A program made the position numbers and the translations under genes. This document shows, in pieces, positions 8,501-62,278 of a DNA stretch of 64,000 bases (position 1 is its first letter; every line of letters begins with the position of its first letter). The stretch comes from Candidatus Dojkabacteria bacterium (GTDB lineage Bacteria > Patescibacteriota > Dojkabacteria > J137). The stretch is taken from contig AP024679.1 in NCBI GenBank assembly GCA_025999215.1, positions 101,645 to 165,644 of the forward strand. The letters are read 5' to 3'. The notes below the pieces were generated by a model. The model did not search any database, was not told where the DNA came from, and saw only the letters and a list, made by a program, of their open reading frames with translations.

Positions 8501-8503
8501 CAA

Positions 8504-12942: not shown

Positions 12943-13623
12943 ATGATTTTTGATCCTTTGTGGTTACTTTTTACAGTTCCGGGCTTAATTATAGCATTGT
13001 TTGCTCAATTGTTTGTATGGTTTGCTTACAATAAGTATTCACGTGTAAAAGCAAACTCAAATTTAACGGGCGCGCAAGTGGCAGATTTAATTAACAATAA
13101 TGAAAACTTTGGGGTTGATCTCATGGTTAGCAATGGAAAACTTAACGATTATTTTAATCCTTTAACAAATAGAGTAAATATTTCTTCTGCCAATGCTGTG
13201 TCTGACTCTGTTGCATCAATTGCAGTTGTAGCTCATGAATTTGGACATGTTCAGCAAAAAGCTCAATCTTCAATGCTTTTTAGACTACGAACTTTAATTG
13301 CTCCATCGGTGGGTTTTGGAGCAAATGTTGGATATATCTTGATAATTTTAGGTTTGGCGCTATCAATAATTGATTTAGCTTGGATGGGTGTAATTTTATT
13401 TTCTCTTACAACAGTGTTTGCTTTCTTAACCTTACCAATAGAAATTGATGCAAGCAGGCGAGCGCTCAAGCTAATTCAAAAATATAATTTAATTCAAAGT
13501 GATTTGAGCGGTGCTCGAATTGTTCTCACAGCTGCAGCGCTTACTTATGTTGCTGGTTTGATTCAATCACTAGGTCAACTTTTGTATTTTGTGTTTTTGG
13601 TAAGTAGCAGGAGTAGAGAGTAA
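12943..13623 (+). CDS. membrane zinc metallopeptidase, YugP-like (HExxH)
   Basis: 226 aa. HEFGHVQQ zinc-binding motif flanked by TM helices. The size and topology are typical of the putative neutral zinc metallopeptidase family. Confidence 0.55.
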   Translation: MIFDPLWLLFTVPGLIIALFAQLFVWFAYNKYSRVKANSNLTGAQVADLINNNENFGVDLMVSNGKLNDYFNPLTNRVNISSANAVSDSVASIAVVAHEFGHVQQKAQSSMLFRLRTLIAPSVGFGANVGYILIILGLALSIIDLAWMGVILFSLTTVFAFLTLPIEIDASRRALKLIQKYNLIQSDLSGARIVLTAAALTYVAGLIQSLGQLLYFVFLVSSRSRE

Positions 13624-13742
13624 TTTACAAGTTTTAGAAAACTTTAACTTTCTATAATTTAGAATGTAGTAATTTTAGTAAGTTTTTAAAAGTTTTATAA
13701 GAATTGATAATTGATTAAGGATGGTTGCTGTATTTAAAAATT

Positions 13743-13771
13743 TTGACATCCTTCAACAATTATAGTTAAAT
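13743..13771 (+). promoter_or_regulatory. sigma70-like promoter for the 13792 gene
   Basis: TTGACA-17 nt-TTAAAT lies about 20 nt upstream of the ATG. An AAGGATG/CATCCTT 7-bp inverted repeat overlaps the -35 element. Confidence 0.35.
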
Positions 13772-13791
13772 AGAGTAGTTAGAAATTTAAA

Positions 13792-14991
13792 ATGGATCAA
13801 ATACTTAATACACTAAACGAACTGCTCCCAAAAATAAGAAGCTTGTTGGCTTACACTGACGAATTGCCTCAAAACTTTGATCAGGTGCTTCATGAAGTTG
13901 AAAAATCAAACCTCATGAATATTCTAAATAAGACTTTTCAAGAACTTAAAGGTAAGCAAGCCAGAATAGATTTTTTAGGTCAAATTTCAGCAGAAATCGA
14001 CAACCTTGATTTATATCCCGAAGATAAATATAACGGGAAGATGCTTATAGATGCTTTTGTAATCAATCATCCACTTTATTTCCCTGATAATCACCTGGGT
14101 ATATTTTCTATATCTTATTTTTTAATCCAAAAAGCAGACGCAATTGAAGATGGAAATTTTGCAAAGGATTACGGTTATAAATCTATTTTTGATTGCTTTA
14201 GTATTAAAACTAGTATTTGGGCTTCATATCTTTATAATCAAGTAATCAAAAAAGGAACATATTTCGAGGTAAAACCAGATTTGTTTTATATTGAAGTACC
14301 TAAAGAATCTAAACAAAGTTTGTATAATGAAAAAAGAGATGATGTGCTTATGCGCGATACTAATTTATTTTGGAACGTAAATTGGCTTTATGCAACAGAG
14401 TTTTACGATACTTTAGGAGAATTTAGCATTCCATATTACATATTTGGTATTGAGGAAGATAACAAATCAGAAAGCACAAAAATTTATCCTTACATGGTAC
14501 TTTCACTTTTATACCTATCGGTAGATAAAGAGTTACAGGAATCATCAGAAACAAAAAATGGACTGCCTTTCAATTTGAACTACTTGGTTACTGCAGATTT
14601 ATCTAGAAACAATAATTTTTTGAGCTGTTACTTGGATATTTTTACTTTAGCATATTTTAAAAATGAAGAAGATACCCAAAGTGAAATTTTGATTATGGAT
14701 TTCAAAACTAGGGCAAAGCATAATCCTAACTATTATACTGATTTAGAAATTTTTGTAAGATATCTACTAGCTAATACTGAAAATTTGCTAGAAATTTTAA
14801 GGCAAATTAACTTTAACTATAAAGAAGAAAGAGGAAAAGTAAATAAAAAAATACAAGAAGTTTGGGGCGATTTAAGTAAAAAATTAAATATCAAAGAAAA
14901 TTTTTCTGTTGAACAAAACGAGAAGCTTAAGAATGCTCTCATTAGGGCTTTTCTATATACTATTGAGTTGGAGGAGATGTTTTTGAAGTAG
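13792..14991 (+). CDS. hypothetical protein (first gene of giant-protein block)
   Basis: 399 aa. No signal peptide and no recognisable motif. Confidence 0.5.
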   Translation: MDQILNTLNELLPKIRSLLAYTDELPQNFDQVLHEVEKSNLMNILNKTFQELKGKQARIDFLGQISAEIDNLDLYPEDKYNGKMLIDAFVINHPLYFPDNHLGIFSISYFLIQKADAIEDGNFAKDYGYKSIFDCFSIKTSIWASYLYNQVIKKGTYFEVKPDLFYIEVPKESKQSLYNEKRDDVLMRDTNLFWNVNWLYATEFYDTLGEFSIPYYIFGIEEDNKSESTKIYPYMVLSLLYLSVDKELQESSETKNGLPFNLNYLVTADLSRNNNFLSCYLDIFTLAYFKNEEDTQSEILIMDFKTRAKHNPNYYTDLEIFVRYLLANTENLLEILRQINFNYKEERGKVNKKIQEVWGDLSKKLNIKENFSVEQNEKLKNALIRAFLYTIELEEMFLK

Positions 14992-15144
14992 ATTTTTATA
15001 TTGTTAGATTAATAATTTTTCAATCTTAAGTTTAGAGATGATTTCACCAAAATTCCGAATTTAACTAACTCTCCTTTTTTTTTGATTTAAAATGTAGTTT
15101 TGATATTATGTTGCCAAAGAATTTTATTTATAAAAAATTATTTT

Positions 15145-16098
15145 ATGGACAGCAACACGAACAACATAACGAAAAATTTAATCTTAGAATTTCTAAATAA
15201 TGAGTTATTTTCAAGTACTAATGGTGAAAATGCAGAGGAAAATCTACAAAAAATAAAACAAGGTATTCAGTCTGTTTTTGATAATGTTTTTAATAGTAAT
15301 TCTCAAATTTTTAAAAATTACCTCAATCAGATAATAAACTCTGTTAATAGTTCAGATGATACAGTCAAACGACAAATTTGGCTTGGTTTGAAATGTCTTT
15401 ACTCTTTTCAATTTGATCTAACACCCACAGAAAATGATAGTCCAATATTTTACTTTTCAATCTTAATCGAAACTTATGCTCCAGAATTTCAATCACTTTT
15501 TAAAAGTTTAGAAAGGAATATTATTGAACAAATTGACAACGAAGATTCTACATTTTTAGATATAATAATAGATTTTTGTAAAGTAACAGGCTTTTCAATT
15601 GGCGAATTTATACCTGAGCCGACTTCTAGTGTTATAGAAATGTCTGATGATTACACCTTTGAAAAAATAATTAAATTGTTTGAATTACTTCCAATTTCCT
15701 TAGAATACGATATAAATGTTGATATATTTGTTGCATCAATTTCAGAAAAAAGTTTAAACGAAATTTTTGATAGCATTTTCGATAATTATAATGTGCTTCA
15801 AAATTTTTTCTACAGTCTAATTAAAAAAGCTTTAAGAGAGTTAATAAACAACAAAGCTCACAAACCTTATATTAAATTTTTATTTTTTCTAGATAATTAT
15901 GGAGTTCACTTGATAGGCAGCGATGATAATTCTAAAAATTTACTTAATAAAAAACAAAATGAAATAAATGGTGAGATTTATTATGAAGATCCTGATAGTT
16001 TATCTATGTTTTTATGGTTGGCAAATAAATGTGAAGAAGATGTTAAGAATTTTTCTTTAATCATTTACACATCTGTTGTTGGTAAAGATTTTTTGTAA
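15145..16098 (+). CDS. hypothetical protein, paralog A of a duplicated 317-aa gene
   Basis: The ATG at 15145 matches the start of the second copy. The track ORF begins at an upstream TTG at 15100. Residues 1-204 are identical to paralog B and the C-terminus is diverged. Confidence 0.55.
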   Translation: MDSNTNNITKNLILEFLNNELFSSTNGENAEENLQKIKQGIQSVFDNVFNSNSQIFKNYLNQIINSVNSSDDTVKRQIWLGLKCLYSFQFDLTPTENDSPIFYFSILIETYAPEFQSLFKSLERNIIEQIDNEDSTFLDIIIDFCKVTGFSIGEFIPEPTSSVIEMSDDYTFEKIIKLFELLPISLEYDINVDIFVASISEKSLNEIFDSIFDNYNVLQNFFYSLIKKALRELINNKAHKPYIKFLFFLDNYGVHLIGSDDNSKNLLNKKQNEINGEIYYEDPDSLSMFLWLANKCEEDVKNFSLIIYTSVVGKDFL

Positions 16099-16370
16099 GT
16101 AAAATTTAAATATGAATATTTGTTATTAAAGAATTTTTTGACAATTGTTACAACTTATTATTGATTAAGTTTGAATCTTCTCTAACGCTAAAAAACAAGT
16201 GAAATTACGGGGATTTTATTATATCAGTAAATACTCTTCAAATATTAAAAACTATATTTTATTCGATAGTTCAAGAAAATTTTTGAGTATATTATTAGAT
16301 TTTTACAAATTAAGATTTTTTCTTTATTAAGAATTTTGAGCATGAAATACAAAATCAAAGGATATTTTGT

Positions 16371-16399
16371 TTGACAAATAAAAATGGAAAAAGTATACT
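16371..16399 (+). promoter_or_regulatory. near-consensus sigma70 promoter for the 1032-aa gene
   Basis: TTGACA-17 nt-TATACT ends about 30 nt upstream of the ATG at 16430. Confidence 0.4.
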
Positions 16400-16429
16400 T
16401 TGATAAATTTAGTTTTTAAATAGATAACA

Positions 16430-19400
16430 ATGGCTGAAAAAATGTCACAAAGTTCAGATACTACGCCAAACAATCTCCAAAAAGGGGAGAGTTCTGTAAG
16501 AGGACAAGAACGAACAGATCCGGCAAAAAGAATGGAAGAAATAAGCTCTGAAACCCATAATAAAGTTAATAATAGACAAGATGAAGAAGAACAGCATGAT
16601 GAAGGCGATAAACTACCAGAAGAGATATTATTAAGCGTTCAAAATTTGTTGAACCTCTTAAAAGGTGAGTACGAAGCTATATCTGGACAAAGTTTTAATG
16701 ATGAACAAAGTAGAGAAAATGCTGTTGTAGAAAGCATAAGTAATGATAAGGGCAAAATGTCTCAATTTGTCCAAGGCCTTAAAAGTCTAGAATTATTGCT
16801 AAAGGATAATATCTATCTATTACATTCAAACTCAAAAAGTATAAAATTAGAAGATTTGTTGAATGAGATGAATTTGTACATCCTTAGAGATGTTAAAATT
16901 CAAAATGGGGGTAAGTTTTTTCGAAAAAATAGAAATCTTGAAGAAGGTTATAGTGCTTTCTATCTATTACTAGATAAAGCTATAAATCAAAATGAGATAT
17001 CTTCCGAAACTTACTCAGCAATGTATACAAAATTACCTAAGCTTATAGAATGGTTGTATACAAAAGACAGAGCTTCATCCGAACAAGAAAAACCAAGCAA
17101 TATTTTTGAGGTTATTGAAAATTTTAGTGAAAATTTTTCAAGTTTTGACACTATTGACAGTGATGAGTTATCAAGTACACTTTCTGTTATGTTTAATTAT
17201 CTAAAAACTTCAATTAGCAGTTTAGATTTTGAAACGTTAGTAGAGAGTAAAGAAAAAGATCTAAAGAAATTGTATGAGCAAACAAAAACTCGAGGCATAG
17301 GCTTTATAGTTTTGCCATTTAAAGTTTTAAGTTTATTCAGGAAAAATTCACGGTTCTTCGCACTTGGTTTAAGTTATGAACAAGAACAAAAAATTATTTA
17401 CATTTTAAACTTTCTTGAAGAAATCATAACAACATATTTTAAAAAAAATTTTGGATTATATCAACCTAGTGAATTTAGGGAAAAATTTTATATATACAAA
17501 AACACACAAGAACAAAATCAAATTAATAAATATTTAAATGATAATAAATTTGTTTCAACTTTGTTTTGGTTTAGAATTTTTGAAGACGAATCTTATTCAT
17601 TAAATTCCAATTACTGGGAAATTATTGATAGTGCATTAAATTCTTACTTAACACCTAAAAAAAACAGAAGATTTTTTTTAAGAAGAAAGTCTGCTCCAAA
17701 AATTGGAGATTTTGAGGGATTATTTACAAACCCTAGGATTAGGGGTATGTTTGATATTTTTTCAAAGTCCCTGGATCTTTCTTACTCTAATGAAGAAGCT
17801 TCTACTATTTCAAACAAGATAAAAGATACACGTGAATTTTTTAATTATCTGTGCCATTGTGTCAAAGAAAGTTCTGGATCAGGGCTTAGTTTTGATAAAT
17901 TATTATCAGCAAGTTTTGATGAAATAATGGGTTTTGAATTAGATGCAGACATTTATACGTTACTTGAGGTAGCTGAAGATAACTTATACATTATTTTTAG
18001 AAGATTTGTAGAAAACATGAATTCGGGTTTTCAAAATGGTCAAGAAGTAGAAAGTAAATTTGCAGAATTAACTGAAATTGCAAATATGATGGAAGTATTA
18101 ATTAAAATGCTATATATATATGCTAATCAATCTAATAAATTAGAGGTTGTAAAAGAATGTGAATTAAAAATGAATGGTTTATTAGAAGGTTTTAAACAAT
18201 GGTTAACTAGTCCCTATAACAAATTATATTTTCTTCTTGCTATAGAAAATCCAGACCAGATAAAATCTTATGAAAATCCTGAAATTATTTTAAATTCTAT
18301 AGGAATTTTTAACGAGATTAGAAAAAGGTTATCAAGCTCTGAGCTTTATTCAACTAATGATACTGAAGATGTAATTAGAAGAAAGGATTATGTAGAGGCC
18401 ATAAATGAAAATTCTGTTTTTGTTAAAAATAAGCTTAAAGAATTAGCTGATCTGCTGCTTTTTATCAACAAAAATAAAAAACTTAACCCAGATATTCTGT
18501 ATAATTCACTAAAGTGGATGTCATTAATTTTTGATTCATTTGTTAGTAGTGAAAATTTTGATTATAACTATAACTTTAATTCCTTGTTTGATACAATTTG
18601 TAAAAAGCTCGAAATTCAAGAAACCCCTGAATATGCTGCATTGAGATTAGTTTTTAATTTATATCTTATTGAAAAAATTTCAAAAGAAAATAATTATAAT
18701 ACTATCAGCAATCCTGGAAGTTTTGAATTAGTCAATAATCCTTTTAATTATTTTAGACTAGCGTATAATGTTGCATCTAGTGTCTGGTACAGAAATGGTA
18801 AACCACATCTAACTCAAACAGATAAAGCGTATCTTTGTATTCTTCTCACACGTTTAGATAGTCAAACACATGGGAACGTGTCACTCTTATCCGAAAGTGT
18901 TATTAATGATAATAGTGAGGTTATGGAACAAATTAAAAATTTTAAAAGTGTGTTTAATTCATATAATGATAATGATAGAAAACTTATAGATCATCTACTC
19001 AGATATCAAGATGAAACTATACCTGATAATTTCTCGAGAGCTGGTATGTTTTTAATATTTCTACTTACAAGTAAAATTAAGCATTATTCCGTAATTATCG
19101 ATTCATTTTTTCTCGAGAAAATTGCATTGTTGTTAAAAATTCACCAAGAAGAAGCAAAACCAAATTCTGTTTTTAATCAATTAATAGATACAATTGGCGA
19201 TATAAAAAAATATCATTCTATCCTTAGATATTTTACTAATATAAATTCACTATTTTTTATAGTACCTAATGTTTCAGGGTTATCAGATAAAGATACTAAA
19301 CGAGTTAAATTGTTAGAATTTTTACGAAGGGTTAATAAATCTGAAAGTTATGATGATTTAGTTAATGATGATAAATCTGCAATTTCAAAAGCTGTATCCA

Positions 19401-19528
19401 TGTCTGGTTTGCAAGGTATCTTAAACATACAAGAAGAAGATGCTAAAGCTTTGGCATATCAAATTTTAAAGTTTATTTCAACAAACTTACCAAGTATGAA
19501 TATGCAATTGCAACAACAAGTTCTTTGA
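16430..19528 (+). CDS. large hypothetical protein (1032 aa), acidic low-complexity N-terminus, no signal peptide
   Basis: A long uninterrupted ORF with no P-loop or other recognisable catalytic motif. Confidence 0.55.
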   Translation: MAEKMSQSSDTTPNNLQKGESSVRGQERTDPAKRMEEISSETHNKVNNRQDEEEQHDEGDKLPEEILLSVQNLLNLLKGEYEAISGQSFNDEQSRENAVVESISNDKGKMSQFVQGLKSLELLLKDNIYLLHSNSKSIKLEDLLNEMNLYILRDVKIQNGGKFFRKNRNLEEGYSAFYLLLDKAINQNEISSETYSAMYTKLPKLIEWLYTKDRASSEQEKPSNIFEVIENFSENFSSFDTIDSDELSSTLSVMFNYLKTSISSLDFETLVESKEKDLKKLYEQTKTRGIGFIVLPFKVLSLFRKNSRFFALGLSYEQEQKIIYILNFLEEIITTYFKKNFGLYQPSEFREKFYIYKNTQEQNQINKYLNDNKFVSTLFWFRIFEDESYSLNSNYWEIIDSALNSYLTPKKNRRFFLRRKSAPKIGDFEGLFTNPRIRGMFDIFSKSLDLSYSNEEASTISNKIKDTREFFNYLCHCVKESSGSGLSFDKLLSASFDEIMGFELDADIYTLLEVAEDNLYIIFRRFVENMNSGFQNGQEVESKFAELTEIANMMEVLIKMLYIYANQSNKLEVVKECELKMNGLLEGFKQWLTSPYNKLYFLLAIENPDQIKSYENPEIILNSIGIFNEIRKRLSSSELYSTNDTEDVIRRKDYVEAINENSVFVKNKLKELADLLLFINKNKKLNPDILYNSLKWMSLIFDSFVSSENFDYNYNFNSLFDTICKKLEIQETPEYAALRLVFNLYLIEKISKENNYNTISNPGSFELVNNPFNYFRLAYNVASSVWYRNGKPHLTQTDKAYLCILLTRLDSQTHGNVSLLSESVINDNSEVMEQIKNFKSVFNSYNDNDRKLIDHLLRYQDETIPDNFSRAGMFLIFLLTSKIKHYSVIIDSFFLEKIALLLKIHQEEAKPNSVFNQLIDTIGDIKKYHSILRYFTNINSLFFIVPNVSGLSDKDTKRVKLLEFLRRVNKSESYDDLVNDDKSAISKAVSMSGLQGILNIQEEDAKALAYQILKFISTNLPSMNMQLQQQVL

Positions 19529-19911
19529 AATGATATCTTCAGTATTGATCTTTAATGAATAAATATTTATATAAATTTTAAAGGCACTTTACGAAACTTA
19601 TATGTATTTAACTGCAGAAGGGGTACTAGAACTTCCTTATGCTAATGTTGATTATAACAGAGTTGATAGAGTGTTTATATTAAAATTAGAACAATCATTC
19701 GAAAATGAAAGCAAAAAAGAAAAACAAGGTCAAATAAATTGAGTGCGCAGTTCTTATGGTATTGAATGATTTAAATACGAATCATAGCTACATTTATGTA
19801 AACAGTTATTTTATCTTGTTTAATTTTAATTATAGGGGTTAAATTTTATGTAGCAAATGTAGATTTTGATATTATGTTGTTAAGTTATTTTATTTGTAAA
19901 AATTTAATATT

Positions 19912-20865
19912 ATGGACAGCAACACGAACAACATAACGAAAAATTTAATCTTAGAATTTCTAAATAATGAGTTATTTTCAAGTACTAATGGTGAAAATGC
20001 AGAGGAAAATCTACAAAAAATAAAACAAGGTATTCAGTCTGTTTTTGATAATGTTTTTAATAGTAATTCTCAAATTTTTAAAAATTACCTCAATCAGATA
20101 ATAAACTCTGTTAATAGTTCAGATGATACAGTCAAACGACAAATTTGGCTTGGTTTGAAATGTCTTTACTCTTTTCAATTTGATCTAACACCCACAGAAA
20201 ATGATAGTCCAATATTTTACTTTTCAATCTTAATCGAAACTTATGCTCCAGAATTTCAATCACTTTTTAAAAGTTTAGAAAGGAATATTATTGAACAAAT
20301 TGACAACGAAGATTCTACATTTTTAGATATAATAATAGATTTTTGTAAAGTAACAGGCTTTTCAATTGGCGAATTTATACCTGAGCCGACTTCTAGTGTT
20401 ATAGAAATGTCTGATGATTACACCTTTGAAAAAATAATTAAATTGTTTGAATTACTTCCAATTTCCTTAGAATACGATATAAATGTTGATATATTTGTTG
20501 CATCAATTTCTGAGAAAAGTTTTATAGAAATCTTTGGCAGTATTTTTGATAATGATAATGAGCTTCAAAATTTTTTCTACAGTCTAATTAAAAAAGCTTT
20601 AAAAGAGTTAATAAACGACAAAACTCACAAACCTTATATTAATTTTTTATTTTTTCTAGATAAATATGGAGTTCATTTAATAGGAAGTGATGATAAATCT
20701 AAAAATTCACTTAATAAAAAGCAAGATAAAATAAATGGTGAGATTTATTATGAAGATCCTGATAGTTTATCTATGTTTTTATGGTTGGCAAGTAAATGTA
20801 AAGAAGATGTTAAGAATTTTTCTTTAATCATTTACACATCAGTTATAGGTAAAGATTTTTTGTGA
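19912..20865 (+). CDS. hypothetical protein, paralog B of the duplicated 317-aa gene
   Basis: 317 aa. The 5' two-thirds and the upstream leader are nucleotide-identical to copy A. Confidence 0.55.
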   Translation: MDSNTNNITKNLILEFLNNELFSSTNGENAEENLQKIKQGIQSVFDNVFNSNSQIFKNYLNQIINSVNSSDDTVKRQIWLGLKCLYSFQFDLTPTENDSPIFYFSILIETYAPEFQSLFKSLERNIIEQIDNEDSTFLDIIIDFCKVTGFSIGEFIPEPTSSVIEMSDDYTFEKIIKLFELLPISLEYDINVDIFVASISEKSFIEIFGSIFDNDNELQNFFYSLIKKALKELINDKTHKPYINFLFFLDKYGVHLIGSDDKSKNSLNKKQDKINGEIYYEDPDSLSMFLWLASKCKEDVKNFSLIIYTSVIGKDFL

Positions 20866-21045
20866 ATGATATTACAAAAAACACACATTTGATAACAAAA
20901 TGATTTTTATGGTTTAGCTTTAGTGGTCTAAATTTAATAAGTTTAAATCTTTTAAGTTGATCTAACTTATTAGTGATCATTATCAGAACATTAATGTAAA
21001 ATTTTATTTATTTTTTTTAATCAATTGTAATGTTAAAATTAAAAT

Positions 21046-24000
21046 ATGTCTCGAGGTAATCCTGAAAGGAATGGTTCGTATGAAAAACCTCCAAAAATAA
21101 ACCAGATACAAGATAAGGAACAATTAAGTTTTGTAATTCATAGACTTATTCATTTATTCCAAAATTTAGGTTCCTTACAAGAAACCGTTAATATAAAAGA
21201 ACAAGTTAATTATTTTAATAAAATTTTAACTACAGAGAATTTAAGAAAAATATTTGGTGAAGTATTATCGTATGATCCTTCAGATTTTGCTCAAACTCAG
21301 ACAGAGAAATCTCCAGTATTTGAAAATATCTCACAATTACTTAATCATTTAAGACTTAACTATCATTTGCTAAAGAATTTTATTAGAGCGGATAACCCAT
21401 TTTTCACGTATTTAGGACTATTGGAAATATCTGCCCAAAAAGATGAAACAAATGTAAAAGAAGCAAGTCAAACACTACCCAACAATGTAATTCATTTTCC
21501 AACTCCTGGTTTAACAAGCAACCCCAGTAATCAAAATGAAGAGCAGTCTGGCAGTACTGTATCTGAAACTCAAAATGATTACCGTTTTGATTTAAACAAA
21601 CTGATTATATTTATATCAAACCAGGATAATCCCGACCCTGAGAATATAGCAAAGCTGCTTAGATCTTTATCAGAAATACTTTCAACAAAAATAATGGATA
21701 TAAATCAAATGAAAAGAATTGGTGAGCTGGCTCAAATTTTCATCTCAAGAAGTAATCTAAAATCAGAAATTATAATACCTGAAAAACCTAAAAATACAAT
21801 AGAGAATGAAGAAATTGTAAATGCAGCTAAGTACCTTTTAGAAAAACCTGATAGCAAGTTTGGAAAACAAGAAAAAATTTTGGCTTTGAATGCGCTTTCG
21901 AATAATCTCACAAAGTTTCTAAAAAATACCCAAAAAGAAGATATTGAAACAAATTTTTTTACAAATTATATTCTCAACACAATTATTAATATTTACCTTA
22001 GTTCAGACGATGATAATCGAAAAATTATAGAGAATATTATTAATTCATTTAGTAAAGTAAGAAATAATGACGAAATACAAGCTTATTGGGAGTCTATCAA
22101 AAAAATATTTGACAGTAAAATTGCAACAAACTTTTTTGAAATTTTAGCAACAATTGAAATAGAAATAAAAAAATTATATGAAGAGGATATGAACAATGAG
22201 GACTTTGAAAATTTGTTAAGCAAATTAGATGAAGATAAAAAACTGATAATAATAATGATAATAAAAGATTTTTTAAGGTTTTACTTTAAATCAAAACATA
22301 ATAGGCTACATAATTATTTTAAAGTTATCTTTAAACAAATTTTTCAACTTCGGACAGAGATTGAAATTACGGATTCAGATATAAGTAAATTTGAAAGTAA
22401 TCTTACAACACTAAATGATTTACTAAACCCAAAAAGAAAAATGCTTGAAAAAGTTTTAGGCTCAAATTCAAAAATATCAAACATAATTGATCCAATTCGC
22501 AATTATATTTCTGTTTTAAAGAAACAAAAGTTCAGTAAACAAACTGAAAATATAGATACATCACAGATTAAAAATACCTCACCTAATACTTCTTCAGAAC
22601 CTTTATCAGAAAGAGCACGTATATTTAAAAGTAAAATGCTTGAAAAAGTTTCATTAAATTTAAGACGATTAAACCCAATTGATATAATTCGCAATTTTAT
22701 TTCTGTTTTAAAGAAACAAAAGTTCAGTAAACAAACTGATGAGTTCAGTGAACAAACTGAAAATATAGATACATCACAGATTAAAAATACCTCACCTAAT
22801 ACTTCTTCAGAACCTTTATCAGAAAGAGCACGTATATTTAAAAGTAAAATGCTTGAAAAAGTTTCATTAAATTTAAGACGATTAAACCCAATTGATATAA
22901 TTCGCAATTTTATTTCTGTTTTAAAGAAACAAAAGTTCAGTAAACAAACTGATGAGTTCAGTGAACAAACTGAAAATATAGATACATCACAGATTAAAAA
23001 TACCTCACCTAATACTTCTTCAGAACCTTTATCAGAAAGAGCACGTATATTTAAAAGTAAAATGCTTGAAAAAGTTTCATTAAATTTAAGACGATTAAAC
23101 CCAATTGATATAATTCGCAATTTTATTTCTGTTTTAAAGAAACAAAAGTTCAGTAAACAAACTGATGAGTTCAGTGAACAAACTGATGAGTTCAGTGAAC
23201 AAACTGAAAATAGGGAAGTAACAGAACAGGCTTCAGAATTTTTACAAAATGCACAAAACTATTATAATCTTAAAGAACTTAAAGATAAACGAACTTTTTT
23301 TGAAAGTTTTTTAGAATACTTGTTCCTGAACGAAAATATCGATAACATGAACAAATCTTTTGGAGTTGAAAGCAGAGATGAGATTTCAGATGAAGTTAGT
23401 AGAAATCAAATCGTAACTCAACTTTTAGAAAGTTGTAAAAACAAACAAAATTATTCAGATAATGAATTTTATACAAATTTTACAGGAATTTTTAGCATCG
23501 ATTTCAACCGGGATTTTGTGATTTTACTCAATTCAGATAAAATTGGTTATAAATTTAAACATTTTTTAATTGAATTATATAAAAAAAGAGTTAATGGTGA
23601 AATAGAAGGCACTAAGTTTTACGGTTTATTTTTAAAATTTCTTTTCTTAAATGAAGATGATCAGATAAAAGAATTGAAGTTGTTTGGTGAAGAATATAAT
23701 ATTACTGAAGAAGAAAAAAAAGAATTACTAGACATAATGGCAAAGTCAAGTGATTCGATTGTAGCTTTTTTATTTGGAAGCATAGAAGCAGTCTTTGGCC
23801 TAAAATTTTTAAACAATATTTCTAATGATATAAATATACCAAAAGTGCTCAAAAATTTTTTAATTAATTTATACGTAAAAAAAATAAACAACCGTGCAGA
23901 ATATAATTCAAGTGAAATGTTGATAAAATTTATTAAGTTTATGTTTTATTTTGAAAAAATTACAGATGAAGAAAAAAAAGAAATGTATGAACTTTTTGGT

Positions 24001-25041
24001 ATAGATAACATAGATCAAATTACTGAAGAAAAGAAAACTATAGTTGATTATCTTTTATCAAACGATAATATTTACTCGATATTTTTCCCTATTCGTTCAA
24101 ATTTTATAATAAGATGCCTAAACGACTTATCTTTTACAAAATTAAAACAATTATTTGAATATGTTGTCTTCAATTTTGATAAAACAAAAAACAGGCTAGA
24201 ATACATTAACGAAAATAATTGGCCTTTACACATCTTTAAATACCTTCTTTCGGGTGGAAACACATACACACAAATAGAAAATTTTTTTCCTTCACAAGAT
24301 GATCAACAAAACCTTGATATTAATGATCGGTACCAATTTTTACAAGATCTTGCAAATAGTTTCAAAAAATTTGGTATCGATACTAGTTCACTAACTGATT
24401 ATTATTCATTTGCTTATAGTATTTTAATAAATGAAGAAGTTGAAAATAAAATTAAAAACTTTATAATAAAAGTACATATTCTAAAATATGGTGTAAACAA
24501 TAAAAGCCAACATGAAATTTTCTCTAACTTTTTTCAGTATCTGATTTTGAATAAAAATGATGTTGAAGATATGAACGATCTTTTTGGTGTTGAAAGCAGG
24601 AGTGATATTTCAGACTCGGAAAGAGATATTATAATAGAAGAAATATTTACAAAACTTGGCAAGTTTTCCGATCGGTTTTTTCCTTACTACGCAAAACTAT
24701 TTTGGAATTGTGCATATGGTACTAATAGTCCAGATAAATTGAAAACATTTATGCATAACTATCTAAAAGAAAAACATTCATATATACATTCATATATATT
24801 TAATGACATGATTACATTTTTTAGAACTGGCAAAGATAATAATGAAGGACTCATAAGGAGTTTTTTTGAATTAGAAGATACACAAAATTTAGATGATGAT
24901 GATAAGAAGAAAATTATAACGTTTATTTCATCTGAAACAGACAAATATCCATATCTAGACGAAGAGAATCTCAAATATTTTCTTGAAGTTAAAGAAGAAG
25001 AGCCTAATCCAACCCAAAATCAAGATGACAATCAAAGTTAA
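21046..25041 (+). CDS. giant hypothetical protein (1331 aa) with in-frame tandem repeats
   Basis: No signal peptide. The N-terminal roughly 130 aa are homologous to the N-terminus of the 25187 ORF. Internal 70-aa tandem repeats are present. Confidence 0.6.
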   Translation: MSRGNPERNGSYEKPPKINQIQDKEQLSFVIHRLIHLFQNLGSLQETVNIKEQVNYFNKILTTENLRKIFGEVLSYDPSDFAQTQTEKSPVFENISQLLNHLRLNYHLLKNFIRADNPFFTYLGLLEISAQKDETNVKEASQTLPNNVIHFPTPGLTSNPSNQNEEQSGSTVSETQNDYRFDLNKLIIFISNQDNPDPENIAKLLRSLSEILSTKIMDINQMKRIGELAQIFISRSNLKSEIIIPEKPKNTIENEEIVNAAKYLLEKPDSKFGKQEKILALNALSNNLTKFLKNTQKEDIETNFFTNYILNTIINIYLSSDDDNRKIIENIINSFSKVRNNDEIQAYWESIKKIFDSKIATNFFEILATIEIEIKKLYEEDMNNEDFENLLSKLDEDKKLIIIMIIKDFLRFYFKSKHNRLHNYFKVIFKQIFQLRTEIEITDSDISKFESNLTTLNDLLNPKRKMLEKVLGSNSKISNIIDPIRNYISVLKKQKFSKQTENIDTSQIKNTSPNTSSEPLSERARIFKSKMLEKVSLNLRRLNPIDIIRNFISVLKKQKFSKQTDEFSEQTENIDTSQIKNTSPNTSSEPLSERARIFKSKMLEKVSLNLRRLNPIDIIRNFISVLKKQKFSKQTDEFSEQTENIDTSQIKNTSPNTSSEPLSERARIFKSKMLEKVSLNLRRLNPIDIIRNFISVLKKQKFSKQTDEFSEQTDEFSEQTENREVTEQASEFLQNAQNYYNLKELKDKRTFFESFLEYLFLNENIDNMNKSFGVESRDEISDEVSRNQIVTQLLESCKNKQNYSDNEFYTNFTGIFSIDFNRDFVILLNSDKIGYKFKHFLIELYKKRVNGEIEGTKFYGLFLKFLFLNEDDQIKELKLFGEEYNITEEEKKELLDIMAKSSDSIVAFLFGSIEAVFGLKFLNNISNDINIPKVLKNFLINLYVKKINNRAEYNSSEMLIKFIKFMFYFEKITDEEKKEMYELFGIDNIDQITEEKKTIVDYLLSNDNIYSIFFPIRSNFIIRCLNDLSFTKLKQLFEYVVFNFDKTKNRLEYINENNWPLHIFKYLLSGGNTYTQIENFFPSQDDQQNLDINDRYQFLQDLANSFKKFGIDTSSLTDYYSFAYSILINEEVENKIKNFIIKVHILKYGVNNKSQHEIFSNFFQYLILNKNDVEDMNDLFGVESRSDISDSERDIIIEEIFTKLGKFSDRFFPYYAKLFWNCAYGTNSPDKLKTFMHNYLKEKHSYIHSYIFNDMITFFRTGKDNNEGLIRSFFELEDTQNLDDDDKKKIITFISSETDKYPYLDEENLKYFLEVKEEEPNPTQNQDDNQS
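22440..23215 (+). repeat. in-frame tandem repeat inside the 1331-aa ORF: about 3.5 copies of a roughly 210-bp unit, with a nested 21-bp sub-repeat
   Basis: The units IRNFISVLKKQKFSKQTDEFSEQTENIDTSQIKNTSPNTSSEPLSERARIFKSKMLEKVSLNLRRLNPIDI are nearly identical at the nucleotide level. The 21-bp sub-unit encodes SEQTDEF and occurs 1-3 times per unit. Confidence 0.8.
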
Positions 25042-25186
25042 AATATAATGAATTATTACCATATTAAGTTTATAATTTGATACAATTAAGAATATAAGAC
25101 CAAACAAAAAAAATATGAAAAAGCACATCAAAGTTAAGTTTTTGTTACAATATGTTTTGAGAATAAATTTTATGTAAAAAATATCA

Positions 25187-28100
25187 ATGAATACATTCCC
25201 TGAATCTAGAAACCCAACTTTCAACCCTGAGGGAAATCAGATTCCTGTTCCTGAAAATCAGGACCAATTTATAGATTTAATAAAAAGTTATATTAGCTCG
25301 ATACAAAAATCAGATCAGGAGGGAAAATTATCACATTTTCGAAACTTAAGTAAAATTTTAACCATAAATAATATTATTGAATTTTTTAATATAAAGGATG
25401 ATGAAATTTATGATCCCAAAAATACAGAATCAGCAGAAAACATTGGAAGTGCCTCTGATTTAATAAATTATTTAAGGCATACACTAACCAACATATTACC
25501 CTTTTCATATCAAGAAGCTAACAATCCAATATTCCGCTACTTATTGTTAATAGAACAATCATCACAAAGCCTATCCAGTGAAAGCTCAGAAGTTGAAAAA
25601 AACGATCTAATAACGAAAGTTGACGTTATCTATAGTAAATTGTTAAAACTTATATCGCAATCAAAAATTAAAATTAAAGACATACCAATTCTTGTTGATG
25701 CTATTTTTCAATTTGAAAAACACCGCGTTTCATCTGATAGTCAAAAAATGTATGATAAGCTTACCCTAACATATAGAGTTGTTGAACTAATTTCAAAATT
25801 ATTTGAATTAACAGAAATAACTATTTATGAACCAATAGTATTTAATCAATTATTTGAAATTGTTTTCGACATAATACCTGAATCCTTTCAAAATTTAGAT
25901 CCAGAAGATTATGAAGGAATAATTGAAACTTTAGCTTATATCTATCAAGAATTTGTGAAAATAATAGATAAAATTTCAAAAAAAGATTTTAATAAAATAG
26001 ATTATAAAATAAATTATGAAAAAACTTTTAACGCATTAAATGAAGCATTTAAACAAAATAGTTTTTATACGCTTAGATTTGGTGCCATGATTGTTAAAAT
26101 GTTAGTGAAAATTAAACAAAAAAAACCTGAACAATTTACAAATATGGGTAACCAAATTTCAAAATTAGCTAAATCTTTAACAAATTCAAATCTTAATCCC
26201 TTATTAAATTCATTACAAACTATAGCGAATAAGAAAAGTGAACTAACTTTAGATGATTTAAAATCTGTTATTAACAACATTATTAACAATTTTTCATACC
26301 TAAAAGATATATTTCTAATTCTCGAAGAATTAAGAAGTCTTAATGATGCTACAGACATACGTTCGTTAAAATCAATTTCAAATTTAATTTCGAAAATTTT
26401 AAAAAAATTTGAACTAAAAGCCCAAGCCCGACAAAATAAAAAGATTCGTGGTGATATAAGACCTGTTTTTCCCTTTTGTAACAACCCACGTGAACTTTTA
26501 CATCAAAATACAAATGATCAAACAAAAAAAATTCCACCTGTGTTTAGAGCAAAGTTAGATGACTACCTTCTATTTGAACTTTTTCATCAACATACAAATG
26601 ATCAAACTGAAAACATTTCAACTGAGTTTAGAGAAAATTTAGATAATAACCGTCTACTTGAACTTTTAAATCAATATATAAATGATCAAACTGAAAACAT
26701 TTCAACTGAGTTTAGAGAAAAGTTGGTTAATTACTGTAATGAACTGGTGAATCCAAAAAAATTAATCGATCCTTTTTCAATATATTTCTTGTATATCCAT
26801 TTGAAAAAAATAAAATTACCGTGTATCCCTCGTTACTACAATTTTGATGAATTTAAAAATATCCTAAATAACGAGTTTCAAATACATATAGATTTAGAAT
26901 TGAATTCCATACAAATTGATGCAGTTTTAAGAATGTTCATTGAAAATAATTATCTAATAGATGCATCAGGAAATATCGATATGTTTACTCTCACAATTTT
27001 TTATCTTAAGCTTAAAGATTTTTATAAAACGAAAGGATATGAATTTGATGAAGAAATCTTTTTCAATATTTTAAAACTTTACGGTATTGAGAGAAGTGAA
27101 GTGACTGAGGGTGATGAAATTAAGTTTGATCATAGTGCTTTGAGGTTATATAGCATTTTTGCTTCAAATTCAACTCAAGAAAAAAATAAGGATTTTACTG
27201 AGCTCTTGGAAATTTGTATTGATTTGAAGAACAATGATGCAAGGTCTTTTCGTAGTAGTATAGCTAGCAAAGTGTCGAACCTGACTCTAGAAAATAAAAT
27301 AAACTTAATTATGCTTATAGCTGAAATAAAACCAAGATTTAGATTTTTTGCAAAATATGTGACACAACATTTATCGATTAGAAATGATCTATACTATCGC
27401 ATAACTTTAGAGTCTAGGATAGAATCTCTAGAATATGAACTAGCCAAATGGTTTGAAGAAAAGTTAAAAAATAAAAATCTTCAACTTGATGATGATACAC
27501 TAAAAGCCTTAGATTACATTCGTGAAACCTTAACAATCAATGTTTTAAATTTTTTAAAACAATTAAAAGAAAGTATTGACAAAGCTCTTCAATCAAGCTA
27601 CAACGAAGAAGTTGATAATACACAAATGAAGCTAAAAAATCAAGAAGGAATTCAATATACACCAACAGAACAGAGTGGTTTAAAATCGAGTGACGATCCA
27701 ACTAACCCCAAGCAAAGAACGCAAGCACTCGAACGCAGAGAACCTTATGTTACACCAAAAAGTAATAAAAATAATGAAGGAGAGGGAAATGTAGAAGTAG
27801 GAAGAAATGTAGAAGCAGGAGTAACAAGTTCTGAAAAAATTATAGACCAACTTGAAGCTATTTTGTTTTTAAAGACTTTTCTAGAGAAATATAGAACAGA
27901 TCTATTGGTGCGTGAAAAACAAAATGGATCAATATTTACAGGTGTTAAAGGGTTAGTTAGAAAAATTTCTGGGAATTCAATTCCATATCGTGTAAAGCAT
28001 GAAAAAAAAATACTTAGGGAAATGTATGTTCGTTACGGTGATGATCATATTAAAAGAATTTTAAAAATAATTGATGATCTATTAGGAGATGATAATTTTA

Positions 28101-30904
28101 AACAAACCGAGCAAGGCCAATGGATTATAAAAGCAATATCGTTGCTAGCCAATATGAATAATTTAAAAGGATATGGATTGAGTGATGTAGAGTCACACAG
28201 TTTAGCTTTTCCATCTATGCTTAGTAGTTTTAACTTGGAAAATATTCAGAGATTATTAAATGAAGGATCTAATACAAACATTGATACGCAAAAAACAGAG
28301 TCAGGTCAAGATATTCCGACTCAAATATTAAATTTAATAGAAACTTCTTTAAATTTTGTAGCACCGGATGATCTGAGAAGTTCTGCTATTAGTTTTCTAC
28401 AGTCTTTAAGCAACACTATTTCGGAACAAGAAGATACAGAAAAAAACACAACTGGTCAGCCTCTGCAAGAAGCTATAGAAGAAAAAGCCATTGATGAGCT
28501 TAGGAATGAATCTACTCTGCAAGCTCTGGTCGTTGCATTAAGTGATAAAAATTTTGTACCGAAACTTATTCATTATATTAAAAAACTTGAACAAATAGTT
28601 AAACCTGAACAAGAAACACCCGAACAAAAAAAGCCTGATCCTGTGGAGCATCCACTAATTAAAGCAACAGAGAGATTGTTAAATGAAGAGAGGGAAAAAG
28701 GGGAATCTGCAGATAGCTTTAAATTCAATTTGTACGATGCATTGTACTATGAATTTTTTTCTATTATACCAAATCTAAATGATTATAATATAAATGCTGC
28801 AAATCAAAATGAGCAAGATACAGGTAACAGCAACTCAACTGCAATTGTACCTTATGATCCACGAGCAAATGCTATTGTACCTTGGTCGGACCAAACATCA
28901 ATTAATTCTAATTTACCTAATGAGCCTACAAATGGAGGTGTAAATCAAAATGAATTGTTGATTATTAATAAGATAATTGAAATGGTTACATCACCAAATG
29001 TTGAAACTGGTGCTTCTATAGAAGACATTTTATCTGAAGCTGATAAAATTTATGCAAACTTTAAAACTTTAGAAAATATAATTAAAAATCAAGAAAATGA
29101 AGAACATTTAAAGAAATTAAACACATTCATTTTGATTGGTTTTATTCGACATATCATCCATAAAAGTAATGTAAATATTGAAAATCAAGGTGAGTCCGAA
29201 GCAGATGATCTTGATCTTAAGAATGCTGCTGCTATGTTTATTGCCTCACAAGGTCCTGTTATGATAGATTATGATTTATTAAAACTTATAACCGAAGACC
29301 AATACGAGGCCGTAAAAGATATGCCTGCTGATATCACTACACTGTTTGTAATAAAGTATTATCGTTGGGATTATTATCAATTCTATGATAGATTGGCTGG
29401 TGATCCTTCTTTAAGTGAAAATAGACTGATTATTTATAAACTTCTTTTGAAAAATGCACTTAGAATGGTTCTACAAGAAACCGCAGAAGATCAAGTTGAA
29501 GAAGTAACAACAATTAGAATTAAGAGATTTTTTGATTACATAGAAAATTTTCCAATAGATACTTTTAAAGGAGATGATGATTTATCTAATCTTATAAATG
29601 AACTTAAGAATAAATATATTGAATATTTAAGTTCAGATGATAAAAACAGCCATCACATAGGTAAAGTTCTAGAAAAAACAGATTTAGAAGAAGGTGATTT
29701 ACAGAAACTTTTGAGATATTTACTTGGTGATAACGCTTCTTTACCAGATACTAATACTATAACGTCATCAAATTATGAAAATGAAAATCCATTAGAACCT
29801 CCTTTCCAAAATCTTTTACAAAAAATAGAAGAAAATCCAAATATTGACTCGGATGTAAAGAATAATTTGACTAATCAGCTAAATAGACTGAGGGGCTTAC
29901 AAGAAGGACTTGATGCTAAGGTTTTAGATAGTATTGCTGTAAATATTAGTCAAACTTTGGAGAACTTAAAAAAAGTTTCTAGTGAAGAAAATTCACCTTT
30001 CCAAATTATACAACAATTGATAGCGAACTGCATTGATGAATCGTTATATAATGAAAAGAATAAACTCATTGCTTTTGCAATATTTCATAGAATACCAGAC
30101 ATTTTAAGTACTCACTTTGATACTTTTTGGAAACCCGCTTTAGAAAGTTTAATTAATTTTGCAGTGTTTACAGAAATGTGGAGTACCTCTAGTATTAATA
30201 CTAAGGTTTTAGAGAATTTCTTTAATAGTTTTAGTGAAAACGCTTCTAATGATTACTTAAACTCGTTAATAAATCATCTAATAAATAAAGTATTAAAAGA
30301 TAAAAGTACTGATAACGATAGTAATAATGAAGCAATTTATTATATTTGTCAATTTTTATTAAAAAATTTTTCAAAAGTTTCACAACAAAACTATGAATCG
30401 TTAAAAGAAGTTTTGGTTAAATTAGCTAGTTCATCTCGCGCTATTTTCAATAGTGTGCTTAAACCTTTGATAACGGAAAATATTTTTAGCCTTTTAAATA
30501 GTGGCGCTACAGAAAGTAGTGAAATCGTTAATAGTTCATTAGCTTTCAATATAGAGTTGGTAAATCGTTTATTTTTAGTAGCTAATAATGATTATGAATA
30601 TGGAAAAAATCTCTTCATTGAAATTTTTTTAGATGGTATTTTTAATCATTTAGAAAAGTTAGATAACCCAAAAAGTATTTCATCTCAAATTAAAACTATA
30701 TTCAATAAATTAGTAGATTTACCTGAACAATATAGGGTAGGGTTTATAACATCATTAAAAAAGAGAGTATATTGGTGCAAAGAGTACAATAACGGTGTTT
30801 ATAAATTTATAGAGCCTTATTTTCTGAGATTAGTGATTGATTGGTTCAATACTAATTCGATAGGCCAAGTATTTCCTGAAGGTTCGGATGTTTTAGAGCT
30901 CTAA
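25187..30904 (+). CDS. giant hypothetical protein (1905 aa)
   Basis: No signal peptide. The N-terminus is paralogous to the 21046 ORF (shared KILT...YDP...LxNxLR...NPxFxYLxLxE). An internal 28-aa x3 repeat is present. Confidence 0.6.
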   Translation: MNTFPESRNPTFNPEGNQIPVPENQDQFIDLIKSYISSIQKSDQEGKLSHFRNLSKILTINNIIEFFNIKDDEIYDPKNTESAENIGSASDLINYLRHTLTNILPFSYQEANNPIFRYLLLIEQSSQSLSSESSEVEKNDLITKVDVIYSKLLKLISQSKIKIKDIPILVDAIFQFEKHRVSSDSQKMYDKLTLTYRVVELISKLFELTEITIYEPIVFNQLFEIVFDIIPESFQNLDPEDYEGIIETLAYIYQEFVKIIDKISKKDFNKIDYKINYEKTFNALNEAFKQNSFYTLRFGAMIVKMLVKIKQKKPEQFTNMGNQISKLAKSLTNSNLNPLLNSLQTIANKKSELTLDDLKSVINNIINNFSYLKDIFLILEELRSLNDATDIRSLKSISNLISKILKKFELKAQARQNKKIRGDIRPVFPFCNNPRELLHQNTNDQTKKIPPVFRAKLDDYLLFELFHQHTNDQTENISTEFRENLDNNRLLELLNQYINDQTENISTEFREKLVNYCNELVNPKKLIDPFSIYFLYIHLKKIKLPCIPRYYNFDEFKNILNNEFQIHIDLELNSIQIDAVLRMFIENNYLIDASGNIDMFTLTIFYLKLKDFYKTKGYEFDEEIFFNILKLYGIERSEVTEGDEIKFDHSALRLYSIFASNSTQEKNKDFTELLEICIDLKNNDARSFRSSIASKVSNLTLENKINLIMLIAEIKPRFRFFAKYVTQHLSIRNDLYYRITLESRIESLEYELAKWFEEKLKNKNLQLDDDTLKALDYIRETLTINVLNFLKQLKESIDKALQSSYNEEVDNTQMKLKNQEGIQYTPTEQSGLKSSDDPTNPKQRTQALERREPYVTPKSNKNNEGEGNVEVGRNVEAGVTSSEKIIDQLEAILFLKTFLEKYRTDLLVREKQNGSIFTGVKGLVRKISGNSIPYRVKHEKKILREMYVRYGDDHIKRILKIIDDLLGDDNFKQTEQGQWIIKAISLLANMNNLKGYGLSDVESHSLAFPSMLSSFNLENIQRLLNEGSNTNIDTQKTESGQDIPTQILNLIETSLNFVAPDDLRSSAISFLQSLSNTISEQEDTEKNTTGQPLQEAIEEKAIDELRNESTLQALVVALSDKNFVPKLIHYIKKLEQIVKPEQETPEQKKPDPVEHPLIKATERLLNEEREKGESADSFKFNLYDALYYEFFSIIPNLNDYNINAANQNEQDTGNSNSTAIVPYDPRANAIVPWSDQTSINSNLPNEPTNGGVNQNELLIINKIIEMVTSPNVETGASIEDILSEADKIYANFKTLENIIKNQENEEHLKKLNTFILIGFIRHIIHKSNVNIENQGESEADDLDLKNAAAMFIASQGPVMIDYDLLKLITEDQYEAVKDMPADITTLFVIKYYRWDYYQFYDRLAGDPSLSENRLIIYKLLLKNALRMVLQETAEDQVEEVTTIRIKRFFDYIENFPIDTFKGDDDLSNLINELKNKYIEYLSSDDKNSHHIGKVLEKTDLEEGDLQKLLRYLLGDNASLPDTNTITSSNYENENPLEPPFQNLLQKIEENPNIDSDVKNNLTNQLNRLRGLQEGLDAKVLDSIAVNISQTLENLKKVSSEENSPFQIIQQLIANCIDESLYNEKNKLIAFAIFHRIPDILSTHFDTFWKPALESLINFAVFTEMWSTSSINTKVLENFFNSFSENASNDYLNSLINHLINKVLKDKSTDNDSNNEAIYYICQFLLKNFSKVSQQNYESLKEVLVKLASSSRAIFNSVLKPLITENIFSLLNSGATESSEIVNSSLAFNIELVNRLFLVANNDYEYGKNLFIEIFLDGIFNHLEKLDNPKSISSQIKTIFNKLVDLPEQYRVGFITSLKKRVYWCKEYNNGVYKFIEPYFLRLVIDWFNTNSIGQVFPEGSDVLEL
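26500..26745 (+). repeat. three tandem copies of an about 84-bp in-frame repeat inside the 1905-aa ORF
   Basis: HQNTNDQTKKIPPVFRAKLDDYLLFELF, HQHTNDQTENISTEFRENLDNNRLLELLN and QYINDQTENISTEFREKLVNY. The second and third copies are nearly identical at the nucleotide level. Confidence 0.7.
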
Positions 30905-31201
30905 AGGTATCATACCACCTATAGAAGTGATGAGTCGAGTGGTGAAATTAATCCTGCTAAAGCTTATCTGTATATTTATCATGTAATTGATCCAGACGGA
31001 ACTTATGAAAAGTGTAAGGGTAAAATTCCGTATATTTTTCCTGAATTTAATCAAGATAATATAGATCAAGTTAATAATCCTTTAGACGAATTACTAGAAA
31101 ACTTTATTAAAGAGGAGGTTAAGAAAGGGTCCAATAACAAACAAGATAGTTCTGATGATTCCTTACCTTCAAACCCTTCTGAACAAAACATTGAAACATG
31201 A
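30905..31201 (+). other. 98-codon in-frame open extension directly after the TAA stop of the 1905-aa ORF (possible readthrough or recent nonsense mutation)
   Basis: The same frame as 25187..30904 runs with no stop and no ATG/GTG/TTG from 30905 to a TGA at about 31199. The composition is coding-like and D/E/N/S-rich. Confidence 0.35.
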
Positions 31202-31682
31202 GTGTAACCTACAACACCCTCAAATTAGGTTTAATATACCTGAGAGGAAGAAGGAAGACAAAAGTATATATGAAATAATATATTAAAAGAAAAAAAATAC
31301 AAATGAAAAATTTAAGGAACAATTTCTTGAATTTGTACAAACGACTCTGGAGCAATTACTTGATATTAATAAAGATCAGTTCAGTGCGATGTATGATGGC
31401 ACGAATGAAGCAATTTTAATTTCTGTAAACTTCTTGTATCCCTATATCATATTGAAAAAGATATAGATTAAAAAAACAAAAAAAGGGGAGTAATTGAATA
31501 AAAAACAATTGTTAATTTAACAGATTTATACTCAATAACAAGGTAATTTGGTGTAGAATATAAAGCATGGCTTTGTATAAGTTTGATTAGTTTATGCAAG
31601 CATTGTAGGATAATGTAATATAAAAATATATTGTTTTCTCAATTTTCGTTGAAGTAAGTTGAAATTGTGTTTATAATACCTT

Positions 31683-39808: not shown

Positions 39809-39832
39809 ATTTATTAAATTAAAATATTAACT

Positions 39833-62241: not shown

Positions 62242-62278
62242 ACTAAGATATGCAGATTTTCGATAAAAAGTCACAATT

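Follow-up and report, generated by a model that had tools for sequence, protein, structure and literature searches.

What might a bacterium with a streamlined genome do with six consecutive genes whose products have no relatives in the collections searched? The question is raised by a locus on contig AP024679.1 of the Candidatus Dojkabacteria bacterium metagenome-assembled genome (MAG) KatS3mg085, in a 64-kb window (the whole stretch of DNA analysed here, in whose numbering positions are given). The block is bounded by a Zn-metallopeptidase gene (12943-13623; Pfam Zn_peptidase_2) and hisS (31683-32966). Our best reading is that it is neither a recently imported island nor a module of the neighbouring ATPase. 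With moderate confidence, we interpret it as a native cluster, restricted to one species, that encodes non-enzymatic helical scaffold proteins, has been diversifying in place, is kept by selection and most plausibly serves interactions with the host or with viruses.

The six open reading frames (ORFs) of the initial annotation, encoding 399, 317, 1032, 317, 1331 and 1905 amino acids (aa), all lie where it had put them, consecutively on the forward strand from 13792 to 30904, a span of about 17 kb. First comes a 399-aa orphan, acidic and without a hydrophobic segment (13792-14991; KatS3mg085_123), followed by copy a of a 317-aa paralog pair (gene 15145-16098; KatS3mg085_124), for which a mechanical ORF list begins at an upstream TTG, 15100. 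A 1032-aa orphan (16430-19528; KatS3mg085_125), with a polar acidic N terminus of about 67 aa and a remainder that is probably helical, separates it from copy b (gene 19912-20865; KatS3mg085_127). The 1331-aa protein (21046-25041; KatS3mg085_128) and the 1905-aa orphan (25187-30904; KatS3mg085_129) complete the block. All island proteins are carried by the 862,240-bp contig and match exactly NCBI proteins in the series KatS3mg085_121 to _129. With a GC content of about 27%, stop codons should come roughly every 12 codons, and the chance of a stop-free run is about 7e-13 for 317 codons and about 7e-74 for 1905; frames of such lengths are far too improbable by chance and are therefore real coding frames. 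A 3,896-nucleotide (nt) Logan short-read contig (run DRR290133) is 100% identical to 16044-19939, confirming the sequence of the 1032-aa gene by an independent assembly. The contig breaks off at either end within a 317-aa gene copy, as a real duplication would cause a short-read assembler to do. Of the window proteins looked up exactly in an assembly index, the 1032-aa one alone had a record; the 317-aa protein, HisS and the ATPase had none. The KatS3 prefix and the run accession match a long-read metagenome study (PMC9671151) and point to Katase hot spring as the likely sample site; that study makes no mention of mg085 and does not discuss the six-gene locus.

By every valid search, the six proteins appear to be orphans. 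Among 5.8 billion proteins, the 317-aa query recovered its own two-member cluster only and the 1905-aa query only itself, and the 1032-aa protein likewise retrieved itself alone when 1.84 billion cluster representatives were scanned exhaustively with phmmer. At 90% identity each protein is a singleton, the two 317-aa copies sharing one cluster. Nothing exceeded threshold in Pfam, NCBIfam, PHROGs or PADLOC for any of the six, and phmmer found nothing among PDB sequences for five. No relative emerged from scans of genome contigs with the 317-aa protein, of metagenome contigs with the 1905-aa protein and the neighbouring ATPase, or of viral contigs with the 1331-, 1032- and 399-aa proteins. Searched by tblastn, four contigs from related Dojkabacteria and other candidate phyla radiation (CPR) members, each representing a single locus rather than a whole genome, contained no homologue of the island.

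The proteins have a common character. All six are acidic, with net charges from -17 to -65; Asn, Ser and Phe are abundant in them, whereas Gly, Ala and Cys (Cys 0-1%) are scarce. Their description in the initial annotation as lacking a catalytic motif and a signal peptide is borne out by scans of all six: none contains a Walker A, HExxH, CxxC or similar catalytic motif, and a Kyte-Doolittle scan revealed no convincing hydrophobic segment or N-terminal anchor. The sole segment over threshold, aa 904-923 of the 1331-aa protein, is marginal.

At least one of the proteins, that of 1331 aa, has an architecture of alpha-helical modules in tandem, with polar linkers joining them. Its order is an N-terminal domain, a polar linker, a helical stretch, a tandem array and six diverged modules of about 100 aa (23248-25005, forward strand; aa 735-1320). 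AlphaFold 2 modelled one module (98 aa) as a six-helix unit with a predicted local distance difference test (pLDDT) score of 83. The best fold matches of this unit, repeated six times in tandem, are to generic alpha-solenoid and helical-repeat scaffolds only; Foldseek against PDB and BFVD returned no significant match, and the module is not present in the other island proteins. The tandem array is an in-frame repeat of 3.1 copies of 213 nt (71 aa) at 22529-23186 on the forward strand, its copies 99-100% identical, with a more diverged copy upstream. This polar region (aa 555-738) is probably a disordered linker. Polar stretches recur in the 1905-aa protein, which carries three repeats of 28 aa (26491-26742) and two polar linkers, aa 806-878 and aa 1138-1179, and in the 1032-aa protein (aa 1-67). 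For the proteins other than the 1331-aa one, a mostly helical build is suggested by composition and by a low-confidence model of the 317-aa protein (pLDDT 36, unusable as a structure). Proteins of this kind would have a binding or scaffold function without enzymatic activity, offering alpha-solenoid-like platforms on which proteins make contact with one another.

The two giants also share a domain. Their N termini are colinear over about 145 aa (21046-21480 and 25187-25612) at about 34% identity, with a Smith-Waterman score of 95 against 35.9 +/- 6.7 for shuffled sequences (z = 8.8; 0 of 500 shuffles as high). Beyond this point no other alignment between the two was found. The initial annotation had described a common domain of about 130 aa followed by complete divergence, and the measurement extends it slightly. 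A profile hidden Markov model (HMM) built from the two giants had no match in the 317-, 399- or 1032-aa proteins. A candidate N-terminal domain common to all six, suggested by eye from an 'NP[IF]F.Y..L[IL]E'-like motif, was rejected, as the HMM gave no match and hhalign only probabilities of less than 1%. The N termini of the 317- and 1905-aa proteins are borderline by shuffling (z = 3.6, 1 of 500) and receive no backing from HMM or hhalign; were their similarity real, the 317-aa proteins would have to be seen as short paralogs of the giants and not as adaptors.

The two 317-aa copies are 95% identical as proteins, with residues 1-203 the same in both; the initial annotation had noted identical leaders. 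The duplicated DNA (15090-16096 and 19855-20863; whole units 15090-16098 and 19855-20865, forward strand) comprises the gene and about 55 nt upstream, and nothing further. Codons 1-199 contain zero differences, codons 200-317 have diverged (dS 0.255, dN 0.063, dN/dS 0.25) and the upstream 50 nt or so are about 84% identical. Because of this mosaic of identical codons, diverged codons and a diverged leader, the pair appears to indicate an old duplication in which gene conversion has recently made the 5' 600 nt uniform. The dN/dS ratio over codons 200-317 further points to purifying selection on both copies. Both 317-aa proteins carry the sequence GFSIG at aa 149-153 (15589-15603 and 20356-20370), which agrees with the GxSxG nucleophile-elbow pattern; the match is probably due to chance, no hydrolase family or fold having been detected.

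Past the TAA that ends the 1905-aa gene (30902-30904), no further stop interrupts this frame on the forward strand for 98 codons (30905-31198), a run with a chance probability of about 2e-4. It contains no in-frame ATG, GTG or TTG start. The stop-interrupted extension recorded in the initial annotation is thus real as an open frame, and it is probably the detached C-terminal tail of the gene, with read-through or sequencing error as alternatives. The 'gene remnant' proposed near 31287-31460 was not confirmed, as the sequence resembles nothing in the window, and the intergenic regions showed no detectable remnants of coding sequence. Active turnover of the locus, also proposed in the initial annotation, is supported by the gene-conversion tract, the near-perfect tandem repeats and the interrupted tail. 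The block diversifies in place by four routes: gene duplication followed by gene conversion in the 317-aa pair, reuse of an N-terminal domain in the 1331- and 1905-aa proteins, in-frame expansion of a tandem repeat and, probably, loss of a C-terminal tail.

Nucleotide composition suggests that this diversification took place in a resident block. GC content is 0.25-0.28 across the island against 0.31-0.35 in the flanks, 4-7 points lower, within a window that ranges over 26-35%. At codon positions 1 and 2, the island has 0.376 and 0.256 against 0.450 and 0.332 in 28 other window genes; at the third position (GC3), it has 0.19 against 0.23. The drop therefore falls mainly on positions 1 and 2 and reflects amino-acid composition rather than recent import. 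Synonymous codon usage is about the same as in the 28 other genes. Given this match and the lack of an integrase, tRNA, flanking repeat or phage-family match, the block can be read as native or long-resident, its weakly constrained sequences drifting toward AT-rich codons. A role in dealings with the host cell or with viruses, rather than in core physiology, is a guess, made most plausible by the fast-evolving and lineage-specific nature of the proteins.

Several points weigh against this interpretation. The slightly lower GC3 and the long intergenic gaps would also fit an older foreign origin. A comparison of valS...hisS synteny gives no empty-site answer, gene order around the ATPase homologues of relatives (58-59% identity) being already scrambled. 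The helical, non-enzymatic character draws on a limited basis, namely one 98-aa module model, the 317-aa model with its pLDDT of 36, and composition, and an unrecognised enzyme domain is possible within 5,300 aa of orphan sequence. The large-collection searches were valid for three of the six proteins (317, 1032 and 1905 aa), and a six-module profile of the 1331-aa protein run against the 5.8 billion proteins did not recover its parent and so yields no valid negative.

If the proteins are helical scaffolds, they need not face a host. They could be lineage-specific intracellular structural proteins, for example cytoskeleton-like or part of an envelope-associated scaffold, with no role in host contact. 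The lack of an export signal, the helical-repeat build and large size, the purifying selection on the 317-aa pair and the native codon usage all suit such a function. It is harder to reconcile with the results from relatives, where tblastn found no island homologue in the four single loci, and with the large collections, in which the 317-, 1032- and 1905-aa proteins stand without relatives, a situation unusual for architectural proteins. The near-perfect tandem repeats and detached tail, moreover, point to fast turnover. We consider a purely structural role unlikely.

The same compositional and orphan signals might instead mark the cargo or remnant of a mobile element or CPR virus that settled between the Zn-peptidase gene and hisS. 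Low GC, long intergenic gaps and orphan content would be expected of such an element, and the adjacent ATPase has its best family match in the uncharacterised phage family phrog_5156 (E 4e-84) and resembles proteins of large Bacillus phages. Gaps between island genes measure 145-383 nt, with 778 nt before hisS, against 0-10 nt between neighbouring housekeeping genes. Against import stand the synonymous codon usage, equal to that of host genes, and the absence of a tRNA from the window, of an integrase or recombinase from a Pfam screen of window ORFs of at least 150 aa (two large, rpoB/rpoC-sized ORFs at 35891-43237 lay outside that screen), of a PHROGs match for any island protein and of relatives in viral-contig scans with three of the six proteins (1331, 1032 and 399 aa). 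No flanking direct repeats were reported, and in relatives the gene of the ATPase is chromosomal and conserved. A mobile origin therefore has little chance of being the right explanation. Regulatory signals offered no further guidance: no Shine-Dalgarno-like leader precedes any gene checked, inside the island or outside, promoter-like matches are as frequent as in shuffled sequence or less so, terminator-like matches are weak, and no Rfam family occurs in the window.

The gene order itself suggests a different kind of system. In specialised secretion systems, adaptor or chaperone genes are placed directly upstream of their cognate effector genes. Here a 317-aa gene comes directly before a large gene twice, so the 317-aa proteins could be cognate adaptors or chaperones and the 1032-, 1331- and 1905-aa proteins substrates of a type IV secretion system (T4SS)-like machinery, destined for the host and recruited through the adjacent ATPase, which resembles a type IV coupling protein (T4CP). 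The large proteins are acidic and lack Sec signals, as such substrates might, and the N-terminal domain common to the giants could be a recognition module. In Patescibacteria, T4SS genes are widespread and, in one Saccharibacteria species tested, essential, with substrates that are unknown (PMC12102498, PMC11665869).

The ATPase supports part of this proposal. It is a 793-aa TraG/VirD4/HerA-type P-loop protein (10448-12829, reverse strand; KatS3mg085_121) with the Walker A sequence GKTGAGKS, and it passes the Pfam cutoffs for T4CP domains: TrwB_AAD_bind at 39.9 bits (cutoff 20.5), TraG-D_C at 32 (cutoff 22) and DUF87 at 30.2 (cutoff 23.2). Together with one N-terminal hydrophobic helix, these scores bear out its initial identification as a membrane-anchored TraG/VirD4-like ATPase divergent to the island. 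Subfamily thresholds are not reached, the NCBIfam model SXT_TraD scoring 45.7 bits against a cutoff of 366 and other TraD/VirD4 models lower. The protein has a single predicted transmembrane helix and, ahead of the P-loop, an extra domain of about 340 aa. The protein is also 22-23% identical, over 75-85% of its length, to Bacillus phage G gp156 and to 'VirD4 component-like' proteins of SPO1-like phages.

A survey of Patescibacteria found 5,713 VirD4-like T4CP homologues in 2,918 genomes, of which only 148 lie near virB4, and the homologue of Ca. Southlakia epibionticum was not essential for epibiotic growth and may be exapted (Quinonero-Coronel et al. 2025, PMC12102498). The window ATPase is membrane-anchored by prediction, passes the Pfam cutoffs and, like most of these homologues, is not next to virB4; it differs from them in its one transmembrane helix, its extra domain of about 340 aa, its scores far below the TraD cutoffs and its best match to a phage family. 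Homologues at 58-59% identity occur in four other Dojkabacteria/CPR MAGs, where they stand alone among housekeeping genes such as a UvrB piece, a signal peptidase, an aminotransferase, an M23 peptidase and an SLOG-methyltransferase; among the neighbours examined there were no T4SS genes and no giant genes. In our window, no VirB4, VirB6, other T4SS or relaxase gene was found among the screened genes, and the island and the ATPase, which are read in opposite directions, have the Zn-peptidase gene between them. The link between ATPase and island that the initial annotation had drawn is not supported: adjacency is weak evidence, and the comparative data argue against a functional unit.

Two side observations concern the surroundings of this gene. 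On the forward strand at 9149-10447, a fusion of an SLOG/LOG-like (Lysine_decarbox) domain with an S-adenosylmethionine (SAM) methyltransferase adjoins the ATPase gene, as it does in a related CPR contig (2854-4113). Upstream of the ATPase homologue in one related Dojkabacteria MAG lies an ORF (7855-8748) for 297 aa with only the C-terminal helicase and UvrB domains; it may be a split or truncated uvrB.

The adaptor half of the proposal fares no better. Like adaptor-effector cassettes, the island sets a mid-sized, acidic, putatively helical protein upstream of a large Sec-less one, twice; unlike them, it has no known adaptor family (the 317-aa protein had no adaptor or chaperone match in Pfam, NCBIfam, PADLOC or PDB), no apparatus nearby, and gaps of 331 and 180 nt between the 317-aa genes and the genes downstream in place of tight translational coupling. 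The two near-identical 317-aa copies precede mutually dissimilar partners (1032 and 1331 aa), the 1032-aa protein lacks the N-terminal domain of the giants, and the diverged third of the 317-aa pair shows purifying rather than diversifying selection. Substrates of VirB/D4 systems carry positively charged C-terminal tails; those of the large island proteins, such as ...NQDDNQS and ...GSDVLEL, are acidic or neutral. The 317-aa family was found in no other genome, so its co-occurrence with giant genes has no cases to examine, and that absence is not evidence against a function. Thus the cassette-like gene order seen in the initial annotation stands, and nothing beyond that order supports an adaptor role; a cassette of cognate adaptors and secreted substrates is quite improbable. 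The fuller version, in which the island would hold the first identifiable patescibacterial T4SS substrates, with large helical effectors for injection into the host, 317-aa loading adaptors, a recognition module of about 145 aa and the ATPase as receptor, is less probable again.

A polymorphic toxin-type system, in which a conserved N-terminal trafficking domain precedes variable C-terminal toxins with accessory or immunity genes, would account for the common N terminus and complete divergence of the giants, yet it is a very improbable reading given that Pfam, NCBIfam and PADLOC detected no toxin, LXG, Rhs, PAAR or similar domain, that the N terminus is common to two proteins only, that the variable parts are very long, apparently helical-repeat regions rather than short toxin domains, and that neither giant has a small immunity-like gene behind it (after the 1331-aa gene comes that for 1905 aa, and after this one 780 nt without a start-bearing ORF of more than 58 aa). 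What probability remains is left for functions that we have not imagined.

Elsewhere the window is of ordinary housekeeping character; its Pfam domain matches indicate a class-I aminoacyl-tRNA synthetase (valS in the initial annotation), RecJ, a P-type ATPase, IF-2, a thioredoxin-reductase-like oxidoreductase, Sua5-TsaE, a sigma factor and TruB. Three of the window's features, all on the reverse strand, are of interest in their own right. A 2638-aa protein (45841-53757) with an N-terminal hydrophobic anchor, hydrophobic segments near its C terminus, CarboxypepD_reg-like domains and a net charge of -222 looks like a giant surface protein, in contrast to the signal-less proteins of the island. 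A 350-aa fusion of Sua5/YrdC and TsaE (58646-59698) joins components of N6-threonylcarbamoyladenosine (t6A) biosynthesis that are usually separate. At 60425-62322, an extracytoplasmic function (ECF)-type sigma factor gene (167 aa) lies directly upstream of that for a 465-aa protein with a weak VWC-domain match, and the two may form a sigma/anti-sigma-like pair.

CPR genomes commonly contain orphan gene clusters, and this one is tied to no mechanism. Its proteins belong to no known family, and the locus is of a known kind, one of the lineage-specific, fast-evolving large-protein loci of reduced symbionts. Metagenomic giant genes described in a recent preprint (bioRxiv 10.1101/2023.11.21.568195) resemble it, as far as the preprint's title and abstract present them, in being overlong genes of unassigned function from uncultivated bacteria. 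That title links them to cell-wall degradation by predatory bacteria, and the abstract gives a Titin scale of about 40,000 aa, far above the island proteins, which by Pfam, NCBIfam, PHROGs and PADLOC have no enzymatic domain and which carry no export signal.

For the organism, the locus means that about 2% of an 862-kb genome is spent on six proteins without relatives in the collections searched, at least one pair of which (317 aa) is maintained by purifying selection. It shows the ways in which the orphan genes of a streamlined genome diversify: duplication, gene conversion, expansion of repeats and reuse of domains. It also carries a caution for the phylum: in Patescibacteria, an adjacent T4CP-like ATPase is not evidence of a secretion system. 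The role of the T4SS in these bacteria is unknown, and delivery of effectors to host cells has only been speculated (PMC11665869). The host-specificity factors of obligate symbionts are usually sought among fast-evolving lineage-specific genes, and if export were shown, the island proteins would offer a first handle on what the patescibacterial T4SS does.

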